Shown one piece after another: positions 10,321-27,095 of a stretch of DNA of 64,000 nt (position 1 is the stretch's first letter; each line of letters starts with the position of its first letter). The notes beneath the pieces were generated by a model, which worked only from the letters and a program-made list of their open reading frames with translations, made no database searches and was not told the origin of the DNA. Position numbers and translations under genes: made by a program. This stretch comes from an uncultured archaeon (lineage in GTDB: Archaea > Thermoproteota > Bathyarchaeia > Bathyarchaeales > Bathycorpusculaceae): contig CAWALK010000001.1 in NCBI GenBank assembly GCA_963782915.1, positions 128,001 to 192,000 on the forward strand, read 5' to 3'.

Positions 10321-11280
<960 letters not shown>

Positions 11281-11283
11281 TTC

Positions 11284-13503
11284 TTAAGTTGATGTGAATC
11301 GGTCAAACGTCGTCAGTGCACTCATCGACCCACATGATGGGCATTTGTGCAGTGTGCCAACCCAGTTTTTCTTGCAGTTGCCGCAGAAGCATATTGTGCG
11401 GTTGTAAGTGAAGAATTCGCTGGCTTGATTCTCAATTATGCGTTTTGTTAAGTCGAGTAGGGCTTCGGGGTTGAATTCGTCGCCGTCTAACTCGTAGACA
11501 TCCAAGCTTCCGCCTGTAGTTGAGACCTTTGGTGGTTTGCGCCATCTCTATTGTGCCTGTGGGTGCGATGAGGTTCTGGGCGGCTTTTATTTGGATGCGT
11601 TTGATGGTTGAATAGTATGGTTTGTCTCGGGATCCTGAGAATTTGACTTTGGCGACGCCGTATCTTTCTACGTCGAGTTGTGCTAGGCGTTCTGCGGCTT
11701 CGCGGTCGATTAGCACTGCGGGGTAGAGGCGTTTGCCATATTTTCTGCCCAGCTTCTGCTTAAACGCCAGCAGAGCGGTGATGACTTCTTCCGTGAATTT
11801 TCGGCTTTCCTCGTCACCCATGCTTTTTTCGGTAAAAGTTTCAACCGCTTCCTTTAACCCTGCCAAATTTATTATTCTTGAGCAGTTTTCCAAGCGGAAG
11901 TATGTGTCGCCGTTGCCCTTCTGCATCAGAAACGGCAGACGAGTTTTTGCCATACTGTTTTAGTGCATTGCTCTTTAGGCTTAATGCGCGTGCGGCTAAT
12001 TCATAGCGTTCTTTGGTTAAGTCGATGAATTTGTTTTTGTCTTTTTCACATTCAATCGCTATTCTGGGGAGATTGATGGTTACGGAGCCGAGGCAGCCTG
12101 TGCGTAGGGTATCGGTTTCCCAGTCGCCTGTTGAGTCAGCAATGAATTTGACGCCTGTTGAGGAGAAGGCTGCGTTCTCTGTTTCCTTCTTAGTCAAATT
12201 GGAGAAGTATAGTAGCCCATTTTTTGCGGCTAATTCATGAGCTTTTCTGAGAAGCGCAAGGGCTTTTTCGTCGCCATAAACGTCGCTGCTGACTTTAATG
12301 ACAAGTTTAGGGCATAAGTAGCGGTTTAATGGCGCTTTCTTCCGCGAAAATGTCGATTATTAGTGATGCCAGCAGCTGGGCTTCTTGGAGGTAATCGCCA
12401 TATTTGCCGCAGGCTTTCCCCTCGGAGCCAATGGCTTCTTTCTCCGATGCCGACTTGGAGATGCAGAGTTCAAGCGCCAGTGTGGCATCGACATGTTGGT
12501 TAAGGTTGAGTATGAACAGGCGCAGGTTCTCTTTGAGGCTGACAACTTCGTTGCCCCGAATAAACGGTGCAAGTGACAGGTTAAAGTAGTTGAAGGTCTG
12601 GGTTCGGTTGGTTTCTCGGTAACTATGCAGTAATACGTTGAAGGCTATGGAGAGGGCAGATTTGAAATCTTTAGGCGGTTCCATGTAGACTTGGCGTGCA
12701 TCGTCGAGTCTGATGCCGTGTTGGTAGAAGTAGCGCAGTTCATGGATGACTTCGCTGGGTTTTAGCACCCAAGTGCCTAAGCCGTCGATGTGGATGGCAC
12801 CTGAGAGATGTGCGTCGGCGATGTCTCTGGGGAAAATGTTTAGGAGCGCATATTCTGCTAAGACAGTTTCTCCTGCCCGATTGATGGTGTCCTCCGCGTC
12901 TAAGGGTGCATCTTTGGATTCGATAAGCGCTGTTACTTCATGGACTGGCATGCCAACGCGGGCTAGTTTATTGCGGTAATCTTCATAGCCTTTTTCGACG
13001 AGGATGCCGTTGACGACCTCGCGGATAAGCTGTGCGGTGAGGTACTTTGTTTTGGATTTTACGAGGCGTTTTTCTGCTTCTTTAGCTGCTTTTTGGGCTA
13101 ATTCAGCTGGAACTTTGGCTTCTTTGATTAGTGAGTTGGCGATTTTGTTGGCGTCAAACTCTTCAACGGTCAAATGTGAGGTGCGGACAAGCATGCCGCG
13201 GGGTTTAACCGCCTTCTTCTCGACGCGGTCGGCAACATCAAGCACCATCTTGCCCAAATCAGTGAGATAATACTTTTTGGCTTCAACGTCTGCCTCAACC
13301 AAATCGGCTTTGAGCAGAAATTTTAGGTGATAAGCAAACCTGCCTGCGTCGCGGCTGGGGTTCATTTTAAGCTGATTCATAAGTTCCGTGTAGGAGAGGG
13401 CGCTTTTGTCGAAGAGCAAGTTTAGGATTTGTAGCCTGAGGGGTGACGAAACGGCTTTTAGCACTTTGACGCCGCGGCTTCTAAGCGGTTGCTGATTAAC
13501 CAT
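11284..13503 (-). CDS. ArsR-type wHTH + ATP-cone + degenerate class III ribonucleotide reductase (NrdD-like) fusion, ~738 aa after correcting 3 indels
   Basis: ORFs 12307-13503, 11841-12197, 11432-11953 and 11284-11505 join into wHTH, ATP cone (VRTSHLTVEEFDANKIANSL), AHLSGAIHI, TLRTGCLGSVTINLPRIA, PYYST and a CxxC..CxxC Zn ribbon. Confidence 0.85.
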
Positions 13504-13614
13504 ACCCCTCTGTTCCTCTTGCCCGATTTTGTGGTGCTCTACCTATTATTCCAGTGGAGACTATAAACTTGACTAAAAAGGGGTTAAAAAGGGAAGTGTT
13601 GGGCAGTTGGCTGC

Positions 13615-14661
13615 TTAGGCGGGGCAGGGCTGCTGTTGGCTGATGCAGTGCAATGTGCCGAAGCCGTAGACTAGGTCTTTGCAGCATATGCCGACGACTT
13701 TGCGGGTTGGAAACAGCCCTTGGAGAATCTCCAGTGCCTTTTTGTCGTGGGGATGGTCAAAGACGGGTACAAGCACTTTGGTGTTGCCTATGTAGAAGTT
13801 TGTGTAGCTGGCGGGCAATCGGTAGTCTTCGTCGCTGACTACTTTAGGCATCGGCAACTTGATTATTGTTAGGGGTTTGCCGTCCTGGTCCACTGATTTG
13901 GTGAGCAAGTCATAGTTTTCTTTGAGTGCATCATAGTCGGCGTCGTTTTCGTTATCCTCATAAGCGCAGACGATGGTGGTGGGGTTGACGAAGCGGGCTA
14001 AATCGTCGATATGGCCGTCAGTGTCATCGCCTAAGATGCCGCGTTTGAGCCAGATGAAGTGGCGTACGCCCAAGAAATCGGATAGGTACTGCTCGATTTT
14101 CTGTTTGTTAAGGGTTGGGTTGCGGTTGCTGTTTAACAGGCACTGCTCGGTGGTTAAGAGTGTGCCTTCGCCGTTGACGTCAATTGAGCCGCCCTCCAAC
14201 ACAATGCCCGGTTTAAAGCAGGTAAGTTTTAGGTCCTTGTTTATGACGTCGGGGATTTCTTTGTCTTTGAGCAGGGTTTCGTATTTGTCGCCCCAGCTGT
14301 TGAAGTCCCAGTGAATCATCGCCAACTCATGCTTGGGGTTCTTGACGAAGATGGGGCCGTAGTCGCGGAACCAAACGTCAGCGTAGTCGGAGACCCAAAT
14401 GTGAACCCGATCCAAGTTGATGCTTACAGCTTTGAACATTGACGTGGCTTTCTTTTTTGTGGGCTCATCGATTACAAAGAGGTTTACTTCTTCGCTCTCA
14501 TGAATCTCCTTGATTATTTGGACATAGGTTTGTTCAACCCGATCGACGCGGTCAGGGAAAGTTGTTGGGTCATAGGGCCACGCTAACCAAATCGCGGCAT
14601 GACGTTGCCACTCCGCTGGCATTGCAAAGCCTTGATCATTGCAGGTTTTGTTGCAGCTCAT
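13615..14661 (-). CDS. aguA: Agmatine deiminase
   Basis: MPAEW, DVWFRDYGP, LEGGSIDVNG, DDTDGHID, ASYTNFY, GTLHCISQQQP. Confidence 0.95.
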   Translation of the reverse strand: MSCNKTCNDQGFAMPAEWQRHAAIWLAWPYDPTTFPDRVDRVEQTYVQIIKEIHESEEVNLFVIDEPTKKKATSMFKAVSINLDRVHIWVSDYADVWFRDYGPIFVKNPKHELAMIHWDFNSWGDKYETLLKDKEIPDVINKDLKLTCFKPGIVLEGGSIDVNGEGTLLTTEQCLLNSNRNPTLNKQKIEQYLSDFLGVRHFIWLKRGILGDDTDGHIDDLARFVNPTTIVCAYEDNENDADYDALKENYDLLTKSVDQDGKPLTIIKLPMPKVVSDEDYRLPASYTNFYIGNTKVLVPVFDHPHDKKALEILQGLFPTRKVVGICCKDLVYGFGTLHCISQQQPCPA

Positions 14662-15598
14662 TGTGTTGCATCTCCAGCTTTGGTTTTGACGAGTGGAGTG
14701 TAGGTGTCTGGGCGTCGGTTGCGCAGGAATCCCCAGCCTTCCTTGATGCGTTCGTTATGTGATAAATCTAGCTTGGCTATGATGACTTCCTCTTTTGTGG
14801 TGCTGCCTTCCGCTATGACTTTACCGAAGGAATCGCACACAAAGCTGCCTCCCCAGAACTCCAGCCAACCCTCTTCACCCACACGATTCACCGCTGCAAC
14901 GTGGATGCCATTAGCTATTGCGTGGGCACGCTGGACGGTTCTGCCAGGCGTCATGCCAGTCGCCGTCTTGGGAGGTGTGGCCTTTTATGTAGCCGATGGC
15001 TGTGGGATAAAAGATGATTTCTGCCCCATCCAAAGCGTTGATTCTTGCCGGTTCAGGGAACCATTGGTCATAGCAAATCAGCACACCGATTCGGGCGTAA
15101 GCGGTGTTGTAGGCTTTGTAACCCTCTTCGCCTGGGGCAAAGTAGTCTTTTTCGTAGAAGTACGGGTCATATGGAATATGCGCCTTGCGGTAGACGCCTG
15201 CGATGGAGCCGTCTGCGTCGATTACTACGGCCGTATTGTAGGTTTTGCCGTTGGGGTTCTTCTCAAAAAGCGGCGCAATAATCACAACTATGATGCTTTT
15301 TTGCCAACTCTGAAAACATGCGTGTGGAGTCGCCGGGGATGGATTCTGCCAGCGCTGACACGTCAAGGTGTTCTTCTTGTGGAAAATATTGTGAACGGTA
15401 AAGTTCCTGGAGGCAAATAATCTGTGCGCCTGCTTGCGCGGCTTCTATGATTTTTTCTTCTGTTTTCTTCATATTTGCCGCTATGTCTTCGGAGACAGCC
15501 GTTTGAATCAGCCCAACAGTTACTATCTTGCTGGGGGCGTTTTGGGTTGGTTTGCCGGTGTTAATATTTTTTCCATCCTTGATTCGAATATTCCACAA
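14658..15598 (-). CDS. aguB: N-carbamoylputrescine amidase (nitrilase family), split by 2 frameshifts; exact start uncertain
   Basis: CLQELY, YRKAHIP...FYEKDYFAPG, LICYDQWFPE, YPTAIG, AHAIANG...VNRVG; adjacent to aguA. Confidence 0.88.
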
Positions 15599-15764: not shown

Positions 15765-17090
15765 ATTATCGCAACTAAAGAAATTGTTAGCGCATTCAAG
15801 CAGTTCACAGACCGATTTAGGACTGCTTATACCGAAACTTCTGCCGATAATAACAAAGAATACCGACAATTTTATCGGTCATCAGATGTTTCTCAAGCCA
15901 GAGCAATCATTTTCCTTCTAGCCCTAACCGTTGCGCTCTTTGGTATTGGTGACTATCTCTTTTTGGGTTTAACCCCCCTCTTCTATGCGTTGGTAACGTT
16001 AAGAGCAGGGTTGATTGTGTTTTCGGGTTTCCAGATCAGATACATTAAGCGAGTTACAGACCACAGAGTATACGATACATCAATTTTTTTGTATATGATA
16101 GTTTTGGTTTTCGGTGTCCTAGCGGTAAACTTTAGTCGCCCCGAAAATTTTCTTCCCCACATCATCGTCATCGATATGGCTGTCTTGGTTTTTTACTTGG
16201 TTGTGCCGACACGGTTTCTCTATCAAGCGTTAGCATCGTGGGCGTTTAGCATAGGCGAAGTTATCATAATCTCATTTACTTTTCAAGGGTTTATGGAACC
16301 CGGATTAATCACGGCATTGCTTAGCCTTTTATTTGCCAACATTGTAGCGGCGCTGACTAGTCTGAAATGCATTCTTACAGATGGCGAATGTACCAAATAT
16401 CAAAGGAACGCAAAGAAACAGACCGCTTAGCAGCCATCGGCCAAACCGCCGGAATGATTGGGCATGACATCCGCAATCCCCTGCAAGCTATAGTGAGCGA
16501 ACTCTACATTGCACAGGGAAGCCATGGCTGAGAGCCACTACCCCAAAGAAGAAACCGCACCTGCCATAGAAAGTATCGACCTTATCGAAGAACAAACCGA
16601 TTACATCAGCAAAATAGTCTCTGACCTACAAGACTACGCAAGACCACTCAAACCCGAATACAAAGAGGTGGATTTGGCAAAGCTGATCGCTAGCATCTTC
16701 CAAACAGTCCGAGTGCCCAACACTATAACATTGAAAATTGATGTTAAGGGCTTCCCAAAAATAAGCACCGACCCCACACTCATCAGGCGAGCATTAGCAA
16801 ACTTAGTTAACAATGCTATCCAAGCCATGCCCGACGGCGGAACCTTAGAGTTAACCGCCCAAAAAACCGAGCACACCGCAGCAATAGCAGTTACAGATAC
16901 AGGCAAAGGCATACCCGAAGAAGTCAAATCCAAACTTTTCACGCCGCTAGTCACAACTAAAGCGAAGGGTCAAGGATTGGGTTTGGCAGTTGTTAAACGC
17001 TTAGTTGAAGCATTAGGCGGGTCTATAACTTTTGATAGCCAAGTAGATAAGGGCACAAAATTCACCATTACTTTGCCTCTGAAGGAATAA
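15765..17090 (+). CDS. Membrane-bound sensor histidine kinase (frameshifted near 16365-16400; start possibly ATT/ATC)
   Basis: About 6 TM segments; H-box GHDIRNPL in the shifted frame; N box NLVNNAIQAM; DTGKGI, F box and GQGLGL G2 box. Confidence 0.85.
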
Positions 17091-17360
17091 TTTCGGCTTA
17101 CAAAAAATTTTAAATTCAAAACATCCGTTAGCTTGGATATGGCGCCCCAAAAAGCAGTTAAGCAAAACATAACTTACTGTGTTCTTTATCTTGTAAGTAC
17201 GCTGTTTTTTCTAATGGTTATCACGTCTGGATTACAGGCACCAGCAATCCTCTCAGGCGCCGCTCTTGCTGTAGGTATTGACAGCATTATACAGTAAAAA
17301 ATAAAAAATATTTAAAAAAATAAAAAGAAAAAAGAAGACGTTAAGCCATCCGATTCAGGC

Positions 17361-18818
17361 TTAATTGGTCGCTGTCAATTGCTGAATTAGGGTTTCAGCT
17401 TCCTTTTTAGTCCTCTCAGCTTCCTTGGCCGCTTCCTTAGCGGCATTCTGAACGTCTCGAGCGATTTCTTTTAGCTGCTCAGAAGCAGCGGCTTGCTCCT
17501 CAATCGCTGAACTGGTCTCTTCAGAAGCCGATGAACTCTCCTCAGCAATGCTTGAAACCTCATCTATTGCCTGAACAACTTCGCTTAGCACCTGCAACCC
17601 GTTCTCCATATTTGAGGCGAGTTTCTGGATTTCACTGTTTGTCTGGGACATGATTTGGGCGATGCCTTCGGTTTCTTTTATTGCGCTCTGAATAACCGTA
17701 GAGCTTTCCTCTGCTCCCCTCTTAGACGCGACGGTAATGCGGCTTGTCTCTGCCCCAGAATCCTTAATTCCTTTCACTAAGGTGATGGCTCCGCCCGCGG
17801 CTTCTTTTGATTGTCCAGCTAAGCCCTTAACGGCATCTGCGACAACAGCAAATCCGCGGCCTGCTTCACCCGCACGGGCTGCCTCGATGGCGGCGTTAAG
17901 TGCTAGCATGTTGGTTTGGCCTGCGATGTCTGAAACAGAGTTTGCGAGTTCCCCTACTTTGTCTACTGCGCTGACCATGTTCCCCACGGCTAGGGATACT
18001 TTGGTGATGTCGGTTTGGATGCTGTTTATGGCAAGTATGCCCTTTTGGCCTTTGTCGTTTGCGTCAAGTGCCTTTTGTGTGGCTTCGTCAGCGATTTTTG
18101 AGGTATGTTTTACGCTGTCGCCTGCTTCATCCATAATTTTCTTGAGGTTCTCTGTTCGTTTAGCGGTTGACTGGGATAATTCAGCCAACTTCTGAGATCC
18201 AGTTGAAACCTGTTGAGAAGCGGTAATGACTTGCTGCATACCCACGTTTATTTGAGCTGCAACTTCAGCGGTTTTCTGACCAAGTTCAGCCATTTTAAGG
18301 CACTGTGCATTGACGTTATCAGCTATTGCTACAACGTTTTTTGATGCTGTACATGCTTTGGAAATGACGTCTTTTATATGCGTTATATCGGTGACTATTT
18401 CGACTGCGCCTACGACTTTTTTGTTTTCGTCATAGAGGGGTCGCCCAACGTACTGGATGGGAATTTCCAAGTTGCCAGGGTGAGCAACGGTTTGGGAGGT
18501 AGCGACTGCTTTTTCTTTCATCGCACGGGCGCATGCACATTTTTCTGTGTGGCAGTCGCCTGTTCTAAATAAGTCAAAGCATTTCTTACCCACTACTGAT
18601 CGAACATTTTCGCCGACTAGTTTTGCTCCAAATTTATTCATGAACGTAACTGCGAAGCTCTCGTCAACAGCCATTACGGGAGATGGGATGCTATCTAGAT
18701 ATTTCGCGTAAATTCCGCTTTTTTTATCTTGCAGCTTTAATCCTTCGTTTTCTTTAGTCAACTCTTCGATTTTTTGTTCAAGCTGCAACATAGTATTTTG
18801 TTCATTTGTCGAATTCAA
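17361..18818 (-). CDS. Soluble PAS-domain methyl-accepting chemotaxis protein
   Basis: PAS ([12 protein letters not shown]...[11 protein letters not shown]); signalling hairpin [30 protein letters not shown]; no TM segment. Confidence 0.93.
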
Positions 18819-25444: not shown

Positions 25445-27095
25445 ATAAATAAGTATAGCCAAATCCTAACTATTTTGCTTATTACATTAGCGTTTTTACC
25501 AGCACTCGTCATGCCTTTCAACGTCCTACCCGTGCAAGCTGCGGAAACTGACCCCGCATCTTCATGGTCTACTATGGCAACGATGCCAACCGCGCGAGGA
25601 GGATTCGGCATAGCCGTAGTCAACGGAAGAATATACGCCATAGGTGGAGTAAACGGCGATAACAAAGCTTTGAGCACGGTTGAAGAGTACAATCCTTTAA
25701 CGAATGAGTGGTCTAGCAAAATGTCTATGCCCACACCCCGAACAGGCTTTGCTATATCGGTGTATGGCGACAAAATCTATGCGATAGGCGGAACCGTCGG
25801 AAACGGCTATGTTGGCAACAACGAGGTATACGATCCAGTAACGAATACTTGGACAACAAAAGCGTCCATGCCTACCCCTAGAGCTGACTTATCAGCTAAT
25901 GTAGTTAATGATAAAATGTATCTTATTGGCGGAAAAAGATACAGCGGACAAGACCCCTTCTATAAAGAAACTGACATAAACGAATGCTATGACCCCGCAA
26001 CTGATAGCTGGAGCACAAAAGCTTCTCTTCCAACCGCCACTCAAGGGTACGGTTCTGCGGTTGTCGATAACAAAATCTATGTTATCGGCGGCTCAAAAAC
26101 TCCAATATCCTCCGGCATAAGTAGCATTATCAACAATAACCAAGTGTATGATTCACAAACTGACCAATGGGCTATAGCAGCACCTATTAGCAGTTTATCG
26201 AGCTATGGCGCAGCAGCTGCCACAGAAGGCTATCTTGCACCCAAAGCTATCTACTATGTTGGCGGCTTCACCGGCGGCGAATTTAGCGATCAAACAAAAA
26301 TCTACACTTTATCCAATAATTCGTGGAGCTTCACCGAAGCAATGCCGACTGCCCGAGCATACTTGGGTTTAGCAGTTGTCAATGATGTTTTTTATGCAAT
26401 CGGCGGTTTCGATGGAACCAACTGGTTAAACACTAATGAACAGTACAAACCCGTAGGATACGGATCAGTTGCGCCAAGAGTGCAAATTACTTCGCCCGAA
26501 AACAAAACCTACCAATCAGTATCTCTGGTTTTTACAGTTAACAGGGGCACTCAATGGATGGGTTACAGCCTAGATGGAAAAGCCAACCTGACTATAACAT
26601 CGGAAACTAAACTTACCGGTCTCTCACAAGGCGCACACCAAATAGCACTCTATGCTAACGACAGCGCCGGCAACATGGGGGCCTCAGGCATAGTTCATTT
26701 TTCGATTGATTCCAAAGCGCCAACAATAGTACTAATGCAACCAGGAAATCAATCATATGATTCAGCCGATGTGCAGTTGATGTTTGCTGTCGACGAAACG
26801 AATGCAACTTTAGCTTACAGTCTAGATGGGCAAACAAGTGTACAGATAATTGGAAACATGAGTTTGGTTGCGCTCTCAAATGGAGCTCATCGGGTTACAG
26901 TTTTTGCAACCGACGACGTTGGGTAATAACGCCGAAAAAACAGTGTACTTTAACATAGCGCCTTTTCCGTGGTTACTGGTTGTTGCTGTGTTGACTATCA
27001 TTATTATCGTGGCTGCAGTAGGTTACATTGCGATTAAAAGGAAAAAAACGGGTGCTGTTACGCCAGCATCCTTGCCTGTTGCTAAGCAAAATTAG
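25445..27095 (+). CDS. Secreted kelch-repeat protein with Ig-like domains and C-terminal TM anchor (frameshift near 26921; possible ATA start)
   Basis: Six kelch repeats (MPTPR..., IYAIGG, YDP.T..W); YSLDG-containing Ig-like repeats; ORF 26868-27095 supplies the TM anchor. Confidence 0.85.

Follow-up and report, generated by a model that had tools for sequence, protein, structure and literature searches.

Here we describe an archaeal gene in which a winged helix-turn-helix (wHTH) domain of the ArsR type and an ATP-cone are fused to the barrel and Zn ribbon of an anaerobic (class III) ribonucleotide reductase (RNR), NrdD, whose residues of radical catalysis have been lost. The gene lies on the minus strand at 11284-13503 of a 64,000-nt stretch of DNA (hereafter the window; C1:128001-192000, on contig CAWALK010000001.1 of assembly GCA_963782915.1) from an uncultured archaeon of the Bathycorpusculaceae, within the Bathyarchaeia, and comprises about 738 codons without three surplus bases. 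From its domains and fold, the catalytic residues that it has lost, its conservation and purifying selection, and its position beside RNR genes, we propose, with a probability of about 0.6, that the wHTH-NrdD protein is a nucleotide-sensing, RNR-linked transcription factor that would be functionally analogous to the bacterial regulator NrdR.

In the window, the gene is read as four open reading frame (ORF) pieces on the minus strand, namely piece 1 at 12307-13503 (398 aa) and, from the list of overlapping ORFs, pieces 2 to 4 at 11841-12197, 11432-11953 and 11284-11505. The pieces join end to end in alignment with intact orthologues and match consecutive parts of the 562-position NRDD profile (13-148, 272-329, 330-452 and 476-538). 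The wHTH occupies 13213-13464 (residues ~14-97), where HTH_5 (residues 20-70) scores 30.5 bits against a Pfam cut-off of 22 and DUF7347 (residues 14-89) also exceeds its Pfam cut-off; the ArsR metalloregulator subfamily NF033788 of NCBIfam scores 32.9 bits, under its 55-bit cut-off. It is followed by the ATP-cone at 12976-13191 (residues ~105-176; PF03477, 32.3 bits against a cut-off of 25.8), by the NrdD-like alpha/beta barrel, which extends across three frames at 11432-12885 with PF13597 matched in all pieces, and by the Zn ribbon (CxxC...CxxC) at 11332-11391, all on the minus strand. Pfam and alignment therefore agree with the domain order read in the original prediction. An AlphaFold2 model of the orthologue from locus L011 (predicted local distance difference test 83.4; predicted template modelling score 0.72) has solved NrdD structures as its best Foldseek matches, with E values of 1e-24 to 3e-17 and template modelling scores of 0.50-0.73. 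Against the NrdD equivalog profile TIGR02487, the same orthologue reaches 214.9 bits, under the cut-off of 326.35, compared with 559.6, 521.3 and 517.1 bits for canonical paralogues, and it has no match to the NrdR profile TIGR00244 at E<=0.001. A homodimer prediction of the barrel (residues 196-690, two copies) scored 0.40 against a mark of 0.42 and is counted neither way.

The residues needed for radical chemistry were compared in an alignment of 38 orthologues and nine canonical NrdD paralogues from the same genomes, anchored on NrdDs of the Protein Data Bank (PDB). In the accessible text on the Prevotella copri enzyme, they are named as Cys416 (radical initiator), Cys171, Gly711/Tyr712 and the NxN flap (PMC11226230). 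The finger loop reads SSTGVKF in the window (the remnant SSTGVK lies at 12147-12164, minus strand) vs MCCRL in canonical NrdDs, the second C of which aligns with Cys416 of the P. copri enzyme; the thiyl Cys column was anchored by aligning the canonical NrdD of this genome with PDB chains in HMMER, and the finger-loop alignment is uncertain by one or two columns. The active-site Cys position of beta1 is occupied by Glu (KPSEVIH; codon at 12751-12753, minus strand), the Glu of TPAE by Arg (LIDRE), and YTNS reads YSTI. Directly past the Zn ribbon, the window protein ends in ...TFDRFTST-stop, and the glycyl-radical domain is absent. These readings, all of which had been made in the original prediction, are borne out by the canonical and PDB NrdDs, and the nine canonical paralogues without exception keep NxN, the beta1 Cys, the finger-loop CC, the TPAE Glu, YTNS, the Zn Cys and RxxGY.

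To judge from the alignments, catalytic death is a trait of the whole wHTH-bearing family. The NxN flap is deleted, with a gap at the first Asn column, in 38/38 orthologues and in all 99 rows of a second alignment that spans Bathyarchaeia, ammonia oxidisers and other representatives. The beta1 Cys occurs in none of the 38 orthologues and none of the 99 family rows, and the thiyl Cys in a single orthologue (L029), against nine of nine canonical paralogues for both. The radical-position Gly is found in one orthologue (L041) and in 13 of the 99 members, never together with the Cys residues; 11 of the 99 have a Cys within six columns of the thiyl position, and no member combines two radical residues. 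Similarly, among the best 150 cluster representatives, 76 carry the wHTH, and 64 of these have none of the beta1 Cys, thiyl Cys and radical Gly; the remaining 12 keep a single one, so that no wHTH carrier has two, while 31 of the 150, which fall below the wHTH threshold, keep the full three-residue set. The original prediction had asked whether orthologues retain the catalytic Cys and RxxGY; the radical machinery is missing throughout. The Zn ribbon is kept, with its Cys residues (three columns scored) present in 37/38 orthologues, the 38th being truncated, and in 99/99 family rows, and all four Cys are 100% conserved across the family. At the C-terminus, members of the window's genus end in ...FDRFxST-stop, and other families keep a tail with RxxA/S/T-K in place of the canonical RxxGY.

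A second kind of apparently dead NrdD was also seen among the representatives (P0187, P0188, P0196, P0212, P0221, P0223, P0226, P0233, P0240 and P0264). It has ATP-cone matches (two stretches in 9/10), a core that stops before the Zn ribbon, and replaced catalytic residues, and in the tree it arises at least three times inside canonical NrdD.

The wHTH-bearing architecture is widespread in related genomes, with intact frames. In 40 of 41 genomes, a search with piece 1 found a full-length orthologue (open frame of 693-802 aa), including 23/24 of the same genus and 16/16 from eleven other families of the order. With the wHTH and ATP-cone (first 230 residues) as query, 298 of 401 sampled Bathyarchaeia genomes matched at E<=1e-15; at the same threshold, one Bathyarchaeia family gave 0/71 and another 0/6. 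Further, a profile of 34 orthologues, run against 1.84 billion cluster representatives, matched 4216 proteins (E<=0.001), and cluster names place distant wHTH-bearing members in Thaumarchaeota/Nitrososphaeraceae and in Asgard metagenome-assembled genomes (Jordarchaeia/Freyarchaeota, Baldrarchaeota and Helarchaeota). With a Nitrososphaeraceae member as query, an orthologue was found in every genome of family f40 (43/43; E 9e-92 to 4e-246). The f40 genomes are 99% complete and mostly 1.1-2.2 Mb in size (one is 4.3 Mb), and archaeal amoA was detected in all five that were tested. The ATP-cone profile PF03477 is passed by the ammonia-oxidiser forms L171 (35.2 bits) and P0198 (30.1), P0243 falling just under the cut-off (24.6), and by Bathyarchaeia forms (27.1 and 26.7 bits). 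Database labels for the family include 'anaerobic ribonucleoside-triphosphate reductase', 'ArsR family transcriptional regulator' and 'helix-turn-helix domain-containing protein'; in metabolic reconstructions, the first of these would wrongly suggest anaerobic dNTP (deoxyribonucleoside triphosphate) synthesis, for example in aerobic ammonia oxidisers.

The 30 wHTH rows among the 59 of a maximum-likelihood tree all lie to the same side of a branch whose Shimodaira-Hasegawa-like approximate likelihood ratio (SH-aLRT) support is 99; the tree comes from a quick search, and two rows have long branches. The clade of ammonia oxidisers is nested on a long branch, and the rows closest to the canonical enzymes are P0132 and P0152, whose clusters have Asgard names. 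On this tree, the wHTH-bearing members share one origin.

Selection maintains the family. Pairwise dN/dS (the ratio of nonsynonymous to synonymous substitution rates; Nei-Gojobori method, NG86) within the genus is 0.090 for the whole gene, 0.037 for the wHTH, 0.045 for the ATP-cone, 0.109 for the barrel and 0.079 for the Zn ribbon, values that are rough because dS is near saturation (24/171 usable pairs for the whole gene). With orthologues intact and a whole-gene dN/dS of 0.090, the pseudo-enzyme of the original prediction is upheld, as a conserved protein rather than a decaying copy. The alignments mark the wHTH and ATP-cone as the best-conserved parts of the family: 36 of the 51 positions that are >=93% conserved across the 99 members lie in the wHTH, ATP-cone and linker. 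Ten of them are in the wHTH (R23, L30, G54, F56, Y58, H59, L60, L68, Y78 and G84), and its helix motif G-[RK]-F-A-Y-H-L-[KR] is kept from Bathyarchaeia to ammonia oxidisers. Residues 106-186 (ATP-cone and linker) contribute 26 of the 51, mostly common to the cones of canonical archaeal NrdD (V106, R107, F116, I121, E128, I160, R161, E162 and others), which is indirect evidence that the cone may bind ATP/dATP. Because constraint is concentrated in these two domains, the barrel looks like a scaffold. LNLPR and related NrdD structural motifs are kept in the barrel, and its nearly invariant residues N477, P479, R480, G548, E551, R605, D610 and Y630 also occur in NrdD. Between residues 187 and 476, D230 and G235 are the only positions >=93% conserved, and the retention of the allosteric (specificity) site, part of the original prediction, is not borne out; the residues named for this site (Glu290, Asn298 and loop 2; PMC11226230) fall where the alignment to the PDB chain is weak.

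The link to RNR comes from gene order. In all 12 f40 loci, and in all five f40 genomes tested, the next gene downstream is a PF02867-type RNR of ~900 aa (ATP-cone, all-alpha domain and barrel) in the same orientation; the gap at the 12 loci is 206-578 nt. In the five genomes, the wHTH-NrdD gene is the sole PF13597 match, no NrdG match reaches the cut-off (best 52.5 bits vs 131), and NrdR was looked for and not found. Among 16 genomes of Bathyarchaeia outside the window's family, eight have a canonical class III nrdD directly downstream, seven have the gene alone and one has too short a flank; NrdR is absent from all eight genomes with the tandem. Ten further lineages add one locus followed by canonical nrdD (L192) and one followed after 34 nt by a PF02867-type RNR (L191). 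Because the gene adjoins RNR genes of two classes, recent tandem duplication is no explanation, and its position directly before a real RNR gene in many archaea suggests that the protein is probably a nucleotide-sensing regulator. Gene order beside two RNR classes thereby gives independent support to the idea of an RNR regulator put forward in the original prediction.

Small ORFs were also noted in the sequence between the regulator gene and canonical nrdD. At L029:4236-4598 (minus strand), one is glutaredoxin-like (Pfam Glutaredoxin, 31.3 bits), and similar small CxxC-containing ORFs were seen by eye at L032, L037 and L039.

Pyrimidine genes form the other conserved neighbourhood. In the window, a convergent aspartate/ornithine carbamoyltransferase gene (pyrB-like; 10360-11280, plus strand; Pfam OTCace_N and OTCace) has a stop that ends 3 nt before the stop codon of the wHTH-NrdD gene at 11284-11286, and the ORF coordinates so confirm the convergent pyrB stop of the original prediction. 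The 'nearby' pyrB, pyrI and dcd of that prediction hold for the adjoining pyrB, whereas for pyrI (979-1257) and dcd (1995-2420), 9-10 kb from the wHTH-NrdD gene, the word is generous. A convergent pyrB and/or pyrI directly follows the gene, or the pair that it forms with nrdD, at 94 of 121 loci (within L029-L047, L088-L167 and L185-L194), and the arrangement extends to three families outside Bathyarchaeia (f47, f52 and f58). The hint of a pyr/dcd regulon is therefore only partly sustained: the convergent pyrB(/pyrI) neighbourhood is conserved, but convergent genes have no promoter in common with the wHTH-NrdD gene, and dcd is distant.

Several observations weigh against an RNR-linked regulator, beginning with gene order. 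In 8/10 further lineages, the gene does not adjoin any RNR gene, and over all loci surveyed 85 have it alone and 25 have flanks that are too short. The loci are not independent, and all 12 from f40 represent one family; in Bathyarchaeia, shared ancestry instead of a functional tie could explain part of the adjacency to nrdD. Within f1, the family to which the window belongs, no locus with enough flank has the gene beside an RNR gene. Further, a true NrdR lies beside nrdD in 23/24 genomes of the genus, so that a simple role in place of NrdR does not fit this genus. A position weight matrix of the promoter-like block upstream of the gene finds in the whole genome only the block itself (33.8 bits; next best 20.1) and nothing upstream of nrdR/nrdD. 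The barrel is itself under purifying selection (dN/dS 0.109), which would allow a residual non-radical activity or ligand site, and the near saturation of dS noted above applies to every such value. Finally, damaged copies exist elsewhere, as the G023 orthologue is also interrupted by several stops (G023:C15:47579-48759) and G004 has, beside an intact copy, an extra degenerate one with four TAA (G004:C4:3071-4264).

The RNR of the window's genome appears to be supplied from elsewhere. A separate nrdD/nrdG, which the original prediction had proposed to seek, was found outside the window in a bacterial-type cassette nrdR-nrdD-nrdG at G000:C6:6263-9408, with NrdR (C6:6263-6709) at 155.8 bits in TIGR00244 (cut-off 124.65), NrdD at 648 in PF13597 and NrdG at 186.9 in TIGR02495. 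A near-identical second copy, riddled with frame breaks, lies at G000:C1:23922-27130. The NrdG genes of this genome adjoin the canonical nrdD copies and not the wHTH-NrdD gene; a profile search agrees with the original prediction that the window holds no NrdG-like match, and no class I/II RNR was found in the genome. In other families, NrdR was found in 2/16 genomes. It is likely that the ancestral neighbouring nrdD was lost after the nrdR-nrdD-nrdG cassette was acquired, and that cassette would now provide the RNR of the genus. The arrival of NrdR together with transferred RNR operons has been described for other archaea, as far as the accessible part of that report goes (PMC3019208). The term 'NrdR analogue' used in the original prediction is thus supported by RNR linkage in other lineages, whereas here a true NrdR coexists with a gene that is not beside RNR. 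As the wHTH protein is kept under strong purifying selection in the genus, it must still have some role. Two ATP-cone matches in the cassette nrdD proved to be an artefact of the adjoining nrdR. Separately, two small ORFs of the genome match the ATP-cone (G000:C25:75826-76047 and G000:C19:131887-132072; frames of 122 and 143 aa; 31.5 and 23.3 bits).

Upstream of the gene, a 44-nt promoter-like block at 13533-13576 (minus strand; 30-73 nt upstream of the ATG) consists of a TATA-like TTTA(T/A)A and a conserved 20 nt. Over 20 aligned upstream regions from the genus it is conserved, including at loci with a different gene upstream. It is a candidate promoter/operator. A k-mer count of 13 RNR-upstream and 22 regulator-upstream regions, related in sequence, was compared with mononucleotide shuffles. 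The top k-mers of the RNR-upstream regions were TATA-like words and an 8-mer of a TGTCAAT-type word in 7/13 regions, a marginal result (the shuffles gave a maximum of 6 in 10/300 and never 7), and the TGTCAAT-type word was not enriched in the 22 regulator-upstream regions. With the scan described above, the search for an operator common to the gene and RNR promoters, which regulation as originally predicted would call for, yielded no site.

Features of the intergenic regions noted by eye are recorded here and not used as evidence. In the ammonia-oxidiser loci L168-L179, they include GATC-containing repeats and short palindromes upstream of the regulator gene and between it and the RNR gene, a small upstream ORF ending in a CxxC motif, and a conserved TGTCAAT-type word that precedes the TATA-like box of the RNR gene; the Bathyarchaeia loci likewise show short palindromes and intergenic regions rich in GATC. 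The region L032:2870-3069, which precedes the regulator gene, contains an 18-bp near-palindrome just past a TATA-like box, the classical place for the operator of an autorepressor; this near-palindrome is not conserved in the sister locus L029.

Three frame breaks on the minus strand, at 12310-12319, 11939-11943 and 11520-11521, interrupt the window copy, and each is a surplus of one base relative to intact orthologues. Alignment and related contigs both place the three single-base insertions where the original prediction had located them. The contigs, from public sequencing runs and ~92% identical to the window, belong to relatives; the source sample was not found among the runs, RNA runs included (best share of words 0.13). 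The base is missing in X1 at 11520, 11943 and 12319, in X4 at 11520 and 11939, in X3 at 11939 and in X2 at 11940, and the 11,450-nt X1 contig spans 11200-13600 of the window at ~92% identity. A genome-wide frame test took 400 kb of G014, a complete genome from the same genus, and compared 253 of its ORFs (>=200 aa) with the genome of the window. For 146 ORFs an orthologue was covered over >=70%; 116 of these were in a single frame and 30 changed frame, and the changes numbered 37 over 165,864 bp (a paralogue pair is the artefact behind two of the 30 rows). Within the window, an amidase-like neighbour (N-carbamoylputrescine-amidase-like; 14658-15598, minus strand) is split into three ORFs by two frame changes, and another gene, with an orthologue of 546 aa, has one change near its end (~26919-26977, plus strand); the second nrdD copy of the genome has several. 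Frame changes across the genome and among the neighbours thus point to an assembly rich in indels. We hold with considerable confidence that the three frame breaks are assembly errors, and the real gene is very probably intact. Indels as a part of the biology, as entertained in the original prediction, are therefore not sustained by the indel-rich assembly or by the related contigs, which do without the surplus bases. An alternative genetic code was considered and ruled out, since the breaks are frame changes and not in-frame stops.

Were the insertions real, the window copy would be a genuine decaying pseudogene that no longer works, which is unlikely. Three breaks in 2.2 kb exceed the ~0.5 expected at the genome-wide rate of ~1 per 4.5 kb, and two of the three lie outside long homopolymers. 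This density, together with the damaged copies in G023 and G004, keeps decay among the rivals, and the presence of NrdR in the genus might render the gene dispensable. Against it, 30 of 146 conserved ORFs change frame genome-wide, a pattern typical of an indel-rich assembly; all contigs covering the sites, from four public runs, are without the surplus base; a single intact frame is kept in 22 of 24 other genomes of the genus; and, three single bases aside, the gene has no further lesions and its pieces align end to end with orthologues.

The likeliest of the rivals, itself improbable, is action on other proteins and not on DNA: an inactive paralogue of NrdD would bind the active RNR or its activase, or buffer (d)NTP effectors, the wHTH serving protein or RNA contacts. 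It would account for the kept NrdD fold, for purifying selection on the barrel and for the tandem position beside nrdD in several families, and NrdD enzymes are described, in the part of the text available, as dimers with cross-talk between monomers (PMC11226230). In ammonia oxidisers, however, the neighbour is a PF02867-type RNR and there is neither a canonical NrdD nor an NrdG match above the cut-off, so that a heterodimer with NrdD is impossible there; moreover, constraint is strongest on the wHTH, and the keeping of its helix motif from Bathyarchaeia to ammonia oxidisers fits a conserved nucleic-acid target. Least probable of the three is a barrel with a new non-radical catalytic or ligand-processing activity, which would make the protein a bifunctional 'trigger enzyme'. 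The barrel's dN/dS of 0.109, the few nearly invariant residues that it shares with NrdD, the radical-position Gly in 13/99 members and a finger-loop Cys in a few are in keeping with such an activity. Yet two of the three radical residues never occur together in any member, the NxN flap that covers the substrate is gone from the whole family, and D230 and G235 alone are conserved within 187-476, leaving little room for a new active site. That canonical NrdDs share the conserved barrel residues makes these look structural, which also counts against a new activity.

A nucleotide-sensing, RNR-linked transcription factor therefore remains our preferred explanation, its core well supported by the comparative data, and a possible mechanism can be outlined. 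The family is taken to be an old archaeal one, placed by its loci in Bathyarchaeia and in Nitrososphaeria-type genomes with amoA. A class III NrdD would have lost its radical chemistry and been taken over, along with its ATP-cone, to serve as the sensor of a winged-helix transcription factor. The ATP-cone would read the ATP/dATP ratio, and the inert barrel and Zn ribbon would form a scaffold, probably a dimer, that relays this state to two N-terminal wHTH domains. Binding of DNA near RNR promoters, and perhaps that of its own gene, would then adjust RNR expression, as bacterial NrdR does with a Zn ribbon and an ATP-cone. Nucleotide binding, DNA binding, dimerisation and the direction of regulation are here predicted from the sequence.

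A broader version of this proposal, to which we give slightly less than even odds, is that many NrdR-less archaea, including the globally abundant ammonia oxidisers, control their only RNR through a regulator built from a fossil anaerobic RNR, in which the ATP-cone, and possibly remnants of effector sites, would measure (d)NTPs and the wHTH would set transcription. If so, the fold of an O2-sensitive enzyme survives in amoA-carrying archaea purely as a sensor, and archaea have solved dNTP homeostasis independently of bacterial NrdR, and perhaps as long ago. Transcriptional control of RNR, and with it of dNTP supply, is well described in bacteria via NrdR. The family is a testable candidate for the missing archaeal regulator, found as it is in the majority of the Bathyarchaeia sampled and, for one amoA-carrying family, in each genome sampled. 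A search of the literature, with subscription-only papers and supplementary files outside its reach, found no description of an architecture with wHTH, ATP-cone and dead NrdD, and a preprint on RNR phylogeny (10.1101/2022.04.23.489257) has no relevant passage on HTH, DNA-binding or inactive forms.

A few kb from the gene, at 16509-18818 of the window, a histidine-kinase-type ATPase ORF and an ORF with PAS and methyl-accepting-chemotaxis signalling domains were also noted; no link to the wHTH-NrdD gene is apparent.

Among the closest known systems is NrdR. It combines a DNA-binding domain with an ATP-cone, and its gene typically lies beside RNR operons, with ATP/dATP setting RNR transcription; the same accessible text calls NrdR 'rare in archaea' (PMC9110341). 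The wHTH family similarly has an ATP-cone and a gene directly upstream of RNR genes in many lineages, whereas NrdR binds DNA through an N-terminal Zn ribbon instead of a wHTH, is only ~150 aa long and has no RNR barrel. ATP-cones are described, in the portion of the source at hand, as essentially restricted to RNRs and NrdR (PMC11226230), and the family would widen that range; it would also be a clean case of a pseudo-enzyme reused as a sensor.

With NrdD itself (PF13597/TIGR02487; PDB 1H7A, 4COI, 8P23 and 9D3X), the family shares the ATP-cone, the ten-stranded barrel fold and the C-terminal Zn ribbon. It differs in being without the thiyl Cys, beta1 Cys, NxN flap, TPAE Glu and glycyl-radical Gly-Tyr, in its extra N-terminal wHTH, in a score under the equivalog cut-off and in its occurrence in amoA genomes that have no NrdG match above the cut-off; in the window's genus, the whole glycyl-radical tail is missing. 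ArsR/SmtB regulators (PF01022; DUF7347) correspond to the N-terminal ~90 residues, which score above the Pfam cut-offs, but the effector module is an ATP-cone with a dead enzyme and not a metal site. Trigger enzymes such as BirA, PutA and NadR join the fold of an active metabolic enzyme to a DNA-binding domain, so that the state of a metabolite controls transcription of the same pathway. The wHTH family resembles them in plan, whereas its enzyme part has lost every residue required for its chemistry.

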